Source: a virus (Duplodnaviria > Heunggongvirae > Uroviricota > Caudoviricetes). From it: a stretch of 7,979 bases of DNA. This document shows positions 2,601 to 3,422 of the stretch, in pieces. The first letter of the stretch is position 1. Every line of letters starts with the position of its first letter. Where the stretch lies: the IMG/VR virus record IMGVR_UViG_2526164652_000007. The stretch is one strand, 5' to 3'. The translations under genes and the position numbers were made by a program. The notes below the pieces were generated by a model, which was not told the origin of the DNA, did not search any database, and was given only the letters and a program-made list of their open reading frames with translations.

Positions 2601-3422
2601 ATGAAACTGGAAGATTTACCGAAATACTACTCCCCAAAATCCCCTGGCCTGACCGATGCATCGGCCTCAACGTCAAAAGATGCGCTGAGTATCACTGATG
2701 TGATGGCCGCGCAGGGCATGACACAGAATCGGGCTGAGATGGGTTTTTCTGCGTTCCTGGGGAAAATGGGCATCAGTATGAATGACAGGGCGCGGGCAAC
2801 AGAATTACTGGCAGATTATGCACTCAGTCGGTGCGATCGTGTGGCGGCGTTGAGAAAACTTCCGGCAGAAATAAAACCGGTAGTGATGCGCATTATGGCT
2901 TCGTACGCTTTTGAGGATTATGCCCGCAGCGCAGCGAGTAAAAAGCAGTGCCCTTGTTGCTATGGGGAAAAATTTATTGAAAGCATAGTTTTTACAAACA
3001 AGATCCAGTATCCGGATGGTAAGCCGCCGGTATGGGCAAAGTGTACGAAAGGTGTGTATCCGTCTTACTGGGAAGAATGGAAAAAAGTCAGGGAGGTGGT
3101 AAAAGTTGCCTGTCCGGAGTGTGGCGGAAAGGGTGAGGTTTCCACCGCCTGTAAGGATTGCCGTGGGCGTGGTGTCGCCATTCATCGTGAAGAGTCGGTA
3201 AAACGTGGTATGCCTGTTATCAGAGACTGCCAGCGTTGTGGTGGTCGTGGCTATGAAAGACTACCATCAACGGAGGCATTTAATGCTATATGCGAGGTGA
3301 CAAACCAGATAACACGCGCGTCATGGGAAAAAACAGTTAAGAAATTTTATGATGCGCTGGTGACCCGGTTTGATATTGAAGAAGCATGGGCTGAGCGGCA
3401 GTTAAAAAAGGTAACTAGGTAA
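2601..3422 (+). CDS. putative late-gene antiterminator (Q-like), 273 aa, with DnaJ-type CxxCxGxG zinc-finger repeats
   Basis: Call is by synteny: downstream of rusA and immediately upstream of a lambda-PR'-like promoter plus intrinsic terminator. Contains CPCC, CPECGGKG, CKDCRGRG and CQRCGGRG motifs. I do not recognise the sequence as lambda, 21 or 82 Q specifically. Confidence 0.55.
   Translation: MKLEDLPKYYSPKSPGLTDASASTSKDALSITDVMAAQGMTQNRAEMGFSAFLGKMGISMNDRARATELLADYALSRCDRVAALRKLPAEIKPVVMRIMASYAFEDYARSAASKKQCPCCYGEKFIESIVFTNKIQYPDGKPPVWAKCTKGVYPSYWEEWKKVREVVKVACPECGGKGEVSTACKDCRGRGVAIHREESVKRGMPVIRDCQRCGGRGYERLPSTEAFNAICEVTNQITRASWEKTVKKFYDALVTRFDIEEAWAERQLKKVTR

Follow-up and report, generated by a model that had tools for sequence, protein, structure and literature searches.

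Four CxxCxGxG motifs in a long-form Q-lambda-family protein of a tailed-phage record and their relation to the lambda Q zinc ribbon

The stretch of DNA considered here (7,979 nucleotides, nt; the whole of it is referred to below as the window) is the Caudoviricetes record IMGVR_UViG_2526164652_000007, and our subject is the open reading frame (ORF) at positions 2601-3422, whose 273-residue product, window Q, carries a series of cysteine motifs. We find that window Q is a member of the Q-lambda family, and its sequence, together with the analogy to lambda Q, makes us confident that it acts as a late-gene antiterminator of the long subtype typified by QuuQ and phi80 gp17. A sequence-only reading of the window had likened the motifs to the zinc-binding repeats of DnaJ, had set them apart from the single zinc finger of lambda Q, and had offered two interpretations, namely an unusual Q family or a different regulator occupying the Q position. 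Neither can be upheld: window Q is an already catalogued antiterminator of a widespread subtype, and the CxxCxGxG repeats are native to the zinc ribbon of lambda Q and no mark of a new family.

Window Q belongs to the Q-lambda family

Both sequence and fold place the protein in the Q-lambda family. In a Pfam scan, residues 178-265 matched PF03589 ('Antitermination protein Q') over the entire profile (positions 1-87 of 87) with 183.7 bits against a cut-off of 26.7 (E=6.3e-55); homology thus leads to Q-lambda itself and not to a family unrelated to antitermination. Among the PHROGs, window Q matched phrog_127, 'anti-termination protein Q-like' (E=5.8e-111), and phmmer recovered lambda Q from the PDB with an E-value of 3.5e-40, residues 1-113 of window Q corresponding to 1-113 of lambda Q and residues 182-273 to 116-207, which speaks directly against a different regulator in the Q position. 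The helical body with its helix-turn-helix has the fold of the solved lambda Q (PDB 4MO1, 7UBJ-7UBN). Q-lambda is one of three unrelated Q families; the other two, Q21 (PF06530) and Q82 (PF06323), do the same job from the same genomic position but are unrelated in sequence and structure (PMC9388147), and neither matched window Q in the Pfam scan at E-values up to 1. The NCBIfam scan yielded weak DnaJ-type matches only, with no model naming the protein. Set against lambda Q, the gene and its product divide as follows.

2601..3422, + strand: Q gene (ATG to TAA), 273 residues, long-form Q-lambda-family protein of the QuuQ / phi80 gp17 type and very probable antiterminator
2601..2732, + strand: residues 1-44, by sequence match the equivalent of the part of lambda Q that becomes a torus (nozzle) at the RNA exit channel
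2733..2939, + strand: residues 45-113, first half of the helical body, by gapless alignment to lambda Q 45-113
2940..3143, + strand: residues 114-181, insertion relative to lambda Q (68-residue alignment gap), comprising motif 1, a long beta-hairpin and motif 2
3144..3254, + strand: residues 182-218, by ungapped match the counterpart of the lambda Q arm (zinc ribbon), comprising motif 3, strand-helix-strand and motif 4
3255..3419, + strand: residues 219-273, second half of the body including the helix-turn-helix, within the PF03589 match

The first 44 residues of window Q and lambda Q align without gaps and are identical at 23 of the 44 positions. In lambda Q, this N-terminal segment (about residues 1-44) forms the exit-channel torus, and the substitution G39A reportedly leads to loss of antitermination (PMC9388147); G39 is invariant across the family in our alignment of 45 homologues. 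The AlphaFold2 model gives residues 1-44 a low predicted local distance difference test score (pLDDT), in keeping with a stretch of chain that acquires order only upon NusA binding. The two halves of the body have pLDDT values of 84-94 (residues 45-113, with helices spanning 46-108) and 85-91 (residues 219-273, identical to lambda Q 153-207 at 21 of 55 positions). Between the first half of the body and the arm, the HMMER and MAFFT alignments both leave residues 114-181, 68 in all, without a counterpart in lambda Q.

The CxxCxGxG motifs and the zinc ribbon of the arm

A motif scan of the 273-residue ORF confirmed the previously reported motifs at their positions: CPCCYGEK at residue 117 (motif 1; nt 2949-2972), CPECGGKG at residue 171 (motif 2; nt 3111-3134), CKDCRGRG at residue 184 (motif 3; nt 3150-3173), and CQRCGGRG at residue 210 (motif 4; nt 3228-3251). 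The repeats are not due to chance: when the protein was shuffled 200,000 times, 0.17% of the shuffled sequences contained any CxxCxGxG, and none contained three or more. Across the 45 homologues, which extend down to 54% identity, no substitution occurs at C171, C174, C184, C187, C210, or C213, and conservation of C117 and C120 is 90% or higher. Moreover, motif 1 reads CDCCxGxG in most homologues, and the more distant long forms keep cysteine at its first and fourth positions (C117 and C120) but not at C119. Judged by this pattern of conservation, CPCC is a fourth, slightly degenerate CxxCxGx(G/K) repeat, and the family has four repeats. The earlier description of three repeats plus a CPCC motif is thus borne out as far as the motifs themselves go, but the separate standing that it gave to CPCC is not.

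In lambda Q there are just two CxxCxGxG repeats, CRDCHGTG at residue 118 and CGRCKGVG at residue 144, which are 18 residues apart and hold the only four cysteines of its arm, a zinc ribbon (residues 114-152) that binds one Zn2+ (PMC9388147). The contrast that had been drawn with the single zinc finger of lambda Q therefore falls away, the lambda zinc ribbon being itself a pair of such repeats. Residues 182-218 of window Q align with lambda Q 116-152 without gaps (14 of 37 identical) and with the same 18-residue distance between the motifs, such that C184/C187 and C210/C213 stand opposite C118/C121 and C144/C147. The predicted elements of the window Q arm (E192-195, H196-202, and E206-209 in the AlphaFold2 model) match the B1-H3-B2 succession of the lambda arm (PMC9388147). 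Given the equal spacing, the ungapped identity, and the matching strand-helix-strand, motifs 3 and 4 are, by homology, the equivalent of the lambda Q zinc site and are predicted to bind zinc in the same manner.

The 68-residue insertion

In the AlphaFold2 model, motif 1 (C117, C120) and motif 2 (C171, C174) flank a long beta-hairpin with strands 125-136 and 159-170 (pLDDT 62-84). As these predicted strands join the two motifs, the latter would lie side by side at the base of the hairpin, and on the combined indications of alignment and model, C117, C120, C171, and C174 most likely constitute a second structural zinc ribbon at the junction of body and arm. The segment between motifs 1 and 2 ranges from 33 to 50 residues in the homologues, with a hairpin tip of variable length, whereas the other two inter-motif gaps are fixed at 5 and 18 residues.

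When the insertion was used as query against 1.84 billion proteins, only 17 cluster representatives were retrieved. Three of them, of 265-277 residues, matched at residues 112-187, one of 227 residues matched at 113-179, and the rest, 50-196 residues long, are presumably fragments. From these matches, the module appears to be confined to this Q lineage. An origin of the insertion as a duplicate of the arm is unsupported, as hhalign of residues 112-181 with 180-222 aligned only a 9-column motif (probability 14%). A Foldseek search with the model of the arm alone found nothing significant (best E=0.11; DnaJA2 at E=0.22). In the literature, we found no solved structure of, or published role for, the zinc-ribbon/hairpin module of the long form, and searches on quuQ and on CXXCXGXG in conjunction with antitermination produced nothing relevant.

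In lambda Q, DNA binding is accompanied by a rotation of the arm around a hinge, through some 75 degrees (PMC9388147). Lambda Q contacts positions 1-4 and 11-13 only of its binding element, and the central base pairs are left untouched. The insertion of window Q sits at the position of the hinge between body and arm and also over the central part of the binding element. By analogy, a plausible guess is that it stiffens or extends the hinge, possibly contacting the central binding element or the polymerase. The fuller proposition, that the insertion is a functional second zinc ribbon in contact with the central base pairs of the element, with RNA polymerase, or with sigma region 4, we consider possible, though on balance doubtful. 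Were it true, the Q-lambda proteins with the zinc-ribbon insertion would form a sub-class of their own, differing in loading geometry and DNA specificity and including the Q by which stx2a is driven in certain Shiga-toxin phages.

Promoter, pause element, and terminator downstream of Q

Immediately beyond the Q gene lie the elements of a late promoter region, followed by two tRNA genes.

3428..3455, + strand: PR'-like late promoter in the lambda/phi80 layout, with -35 TTGATT (3428-3433), spacer TTTCCGGAATCTGTGG (3434-3449, 16 nt), and -10 TAAATT (3450-3455)
3462..3470, + strand: sigma-dependent pause element AATAAT (3462-3467) plus GGG (3468-3470), 6 nt past the -10, as in lambda
3503..3529, + strand: intrinsic terminator, tR'-like, with a 7-bp stem (five G-C pairs) and then a T run
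3566..3641, + strand: tRNA with anticodon CAT, downstream of the terminator, called Met by ARAGORN and annotated as tRNA-Ile in the RefSeq relative
3743..3819, + strand: tRNA-Arg (TCT), downstream of the terminator, from the tRNA call

We identified the PR' site by comparison with lambda and phi80 and not with the promoter scanner, which applies a 9-of-12 rule. Its -35 begins five bases past the Q stop codon, the predicted transcription start is position 3462, and the predicted leader RNA is about 67 nt long. The terminator hairpin is present in the minimum-free-energy fold, and substitutions in its stem occur in relatives; the short PR' leader was not recognised by Rfam. The same order of elements (-35, 16-17 nt, -10, 6-7 nt, AAnnAT, GGG, and then a terminator) is seen in the window, lambda, phi80, Gifsy-2, K-12 Qin, and a Stx2a phage. 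Its lambda version runs TTGACT, 17 nt, TAAATT, 6 nt, AACGAT, GGG, where AACGAT, at +1 to +6, is a sigma70-dependent pause element and GGG a discriminator-like enhancer (PMC4005639). The relatives of the window have AACGAT, AATGAT, or AACAAT in this place, and among the 37 sequence variants that we collected from 80 related loci, A1, A2, A5, and T6 together with the GGG are kept in 36, the exceptions being GATGAT in L006 and GATAGG in L077.

In the same 37 variants, the spacer hardly changes, in contrast to the 6 nt that separate the -10 from the pause element. Phages with a more divergent Q (50-58% identity) have a similar spacer, which reads TTTCCCGAATCTGTG in both HK225 and mEp237 and TTTCCCGAAACTGCG in phiEt88. 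On account of this near-invariance and recurrence, TTTCCGGAATCTGTGG (3434-3449) is a candidate Q-binding element. The phi80 record annotates a -35, a site for gp17 (Q), TCGCGGA, directly after it, and a -10.

The analogy to lambda Q, for which loading (PMC9388147) and pausing (PMC4005639) have been described, suggests a course of events for the window. The helix-turn-helix body and the zinc-ribbon arm would bind the element in the promoter spacer (within 3428-3455), by homology with lambda Q, and RNA polymerase would meanwhile pause at the sigma70-dependent, -10-like AATAAT-GGG (3462-3470). With NusA, the N-terminal ~44 residues of Q would next adopt a ring-shaped fold inside the RNA exit channel. 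Such a ring would prevent the terminator hairpin from forming, so that polymerase would continue past the terminator (3503-3529) and transcribe the tRNAs and the late genes. The four CxxCxG motifs would in this scheme furnish two zinc sites: a lambda-type site from motifs 3 and 4, and a second from motifs 1 and 2 at the base of the hairpin.

Of the two tRNAs, the one with anticodon CAT is probably a lysidine-modified Ile tRNA, since the RefSeq relative annotates tRNA-Ile despite the ARAGORN call of Met. The pair stands just past the late terminator, as does the tRNA cluster of the Stx2a phage Stx2_EH1910.

Distribution and closest relatives

Our protein search gave 622 clusters, of which the best 120 are almost all of 260-277 residues and come from Escherichia, Salmonella, Klebsiella, Enterobacter, Citrobacter, Serratia, and others. 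The cluster sources use the name 'antitermination protein', and the membership of an individual cluster can run to thousands of sequences. The C-terminal part of Q-lambda is encoded in 249 of 50,697 phage records, and 34 of the 249 also encode the insertion, including phi80, Gifsy-2, Fels-1, HK225, mEp237, SPN3UB, and phiEt88. The Q gene and its promoter are found at no less than 80% identity in 2,495 of 5,426 complete E. coli genomes, so that this type of Q is present in nearly half of them. The commonness of the long form (as in phi80, Gifsy-2, and K-12 QuuQ), alongside the strong PF03589 match, deprives the idea of an unusual Q family of support.

The Q of phage mEp460_ev081 is 99.6% identical to that of the window, and lysis genes follow downstream in that phage. 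Phage Stx2_EH1910 has a close allele 2 kb upstream of its stx2AB genes, and promoter recognition by long-form Q could therefore bear on toxin expression.

Comparison with characterized systems brings out both shared and divergent features. Lambda Q lacks the 68-residue insertion with its two CxxC motifs and long beta-hairpin; the lambda PR' spacer has 17 nt, as opposed to 16 in the window, with a different sequence of the binding element, and its start is about 190 nt from the terminator, as against the ~67-nt leader of the window. The 269-residue gp17 of phi80 (Q80) is 41% identical to window Q and has the same insertion and four cysteine motifs, and the annotated phi80 pR' likewise has a Q site directly after the -35, then a -10-like element with GGG, and a terminator. 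It departs from window Q in motif 3, which is CxC (CRCHGKG) instead of CxxC, and in the spacer, TTCGCGGAAAAACTGGA in place of TTTCCGGAATCTGTGG; as the spacers differ, so probably do the DNA specificities of the two proteins. Phi80 Q has been the object of experimental work, and a 2004 paper by Guo and Roberts on the DNA-binding regions of Q reportedly has it as its subject. The CxC form of motif 3, which is also seen in Gifsy-2, Fels-1, and a Klebsiella phage, is absent from lambda Q and window Q and amounts to a knuckle shorter by one residue in the arm zinc site.

The product of the K-12 Qin prophage, QuuQ (YdfT, b1559; 250 residues), is 40% identical over its full length and has all four motifs. 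Its neighbourhood (hokD, rem, ydfU of the DUF968 family, and Q) is as in the window, and so is the PR' layout, with AACGAT-GGG. The two differ in that QuuQ has a shorter hairpin between motifs 1 and 2, its motif 4 ends in NR and not RG, and the order ydfU - rusA - Q of the window is matched in Qin but for the absence of rusA between ydfU and Q.

Alternative readings

Several observations weigh against our account. Plain BLASTP sets C118/C121 of lambda Q opposite motif 1 instead of motif 3; we rejected this gap placement, which has 5 identities in 22 positions versus 14 in 37 for motifs 3 and 4 and is contradicted by HMMER and MAFFT. The proposed zinc pairing of 1+2 and 3+4 derives from the lambda Q homology and the predicted strands and not from measured distances, and residues 108-226, when folded alone by AlphaFold2, gave a poor model (pLDDT 59). 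The promoter scanner missed the PR' site, which agrees with the consensus at 8 of 12 positions against a threshold of 9. The late operon that Q would serve is probably broken in this genome, because the surrounding prophage carries several insertion sequence (IS) elements. More broadly, antitermination activity, zinc binding, the DNA site, the pairing of motifs as 1+2 and 3+4, and whatever the insertion does are all features that we infer for window Q.

The resemblance to DnaJ was the starting point of the sequence-only reading, and at its strongest it would make the four repeats a DnaJ-type domain with interleaved zinc centres, engaged in chaperone-like or anti-TRAP-like protein binding besides or instead of antitermination. 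DnaJ has four CxxCxGxG repeats per domain, as does window Q, and there are weak matches to PF00684, the DnaJ cysteine-rich domain (28.4 bits), to TIGR02349 (E=1.4e-6), and to anti-TRAP (E=0.00018-0.03); one homologue is even labelled 'chaperone protein DnaJ' by its source, and DnaJA2 is the top non-Q match in Foldseek (probability 0.92-0.98). However, the PF00684 match is below the cut-off of 32.7 bits and covers residues 171-218 only, the DnaJ equivalog models of NCBIfam reach 8-28 bits where their cut-offs are 338-619, and the DnaJA2 match is not significant (E=0.2-0.4, template-modelling score about 0.3, root-mean-square deviation 9-10 A). The gaps between successive repeats are 46/5/18 residues in window Q and 9/14/6 in E. 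coli DnaJ, and the Pfam and NCBIfam scans found no J domain, G/F region, or DnaJ C-terminal domains, the flanks being those of the Q-lambda body. In DnaJ, the zinc pairing is interleaved, 1+4 and 2+3. For window Q, homology with lambda Q favours the pairing of 3 with 4 and a sequential order, 1+2 and 3+4, for the whole. We hence regard the DnaJ-type domain as extremely improbable: with sub-threshold scores and a different spacing, the likeness is real for the repeat, as had been noticed, but goes no further, and the repeat is already part of lambda Q.

That Q is nothing but an inert remnant, an intact ORF controlling nothing in an IS-riddled prophage, with the insertion as neutral decoration, also appears very unlikely to us. 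The following IS-related pieces would fit such a reading.

387-725, - strand: remnant of an IS3-family orfA
5928-7084, - strand: complete IS3-family element (orfA 6782-7084, orfB 5928-6746), inserted after the DUF1737 ORF
7782-7979, + strand: start of a helix-turn-helix transposase at the right end of the window

The hairpin tip, which varies between 33 and 50 residues among homologues, and the fact that lambda Q functions without the insertion would fit it too. Yet the ORF and the promoter, pause element, and terminator that follow it are undamaged and agree with their counterparts in phage genomes. Further, F125, I126, V130, F131, K134, and E165 along with the insertion cysteines show little or no variation among homologues of 54% identity and above, and the insertion still has its CxxC pairs at 36-58% identity; the conservation of its cysteines and of the hairpin base points to selection on the insertion. 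A functional long-form Q-lambda antiterminator, as proposed above, is thus the reading we favour, even in a damaged setting: the best match at a single place in any complete E. coli genome covers no more than 71% of the window, and this, together with the three transposase pieces, indicates that the present prophage copy is probably rearranged and defective.

The surrounding prophage

The remaining features of the window are these.

1168-2217, + strand: DUF968 / YdfU-like protein of 349 residues with a weakly HNH-nuclease-like C-terminus
3930-4283, + strand: ORF of 117 residues, matching only phrog_2873 (unknown function) and unannotated in the RefSeq relative
4516-4705, + strand: small RNA STnc100 (RF02076), full length in Rfam at 132 bits
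4731-5066, - strand: ORF of 111 residues, by position the 'anti-adapter protein IraM' gene of the RefSeq relative
7537-7708, + strand: sok antitoxin RNA (RF01794), full length in Rfam at 99.8 bits

The mEp460_ev081 record labels its DUF968 / YdfU-like gene 'Phage antitermination protein Q'. This looks like a mis-annotation, because the true Q lies two genes downstream. The ORF at 4731-5066 had no match in Pfam. STnc100 is placed about 1 kb past the block of Q, terminator, and tRNAs, and according to a 2026 preprint, STnc100 and its PasD small-RNA relatives are linked with PF03589 Q genes of E. coli prophages. The sok RNA falls between the IS element and the further transposase start, at a point where related genomes have the holin gene next.
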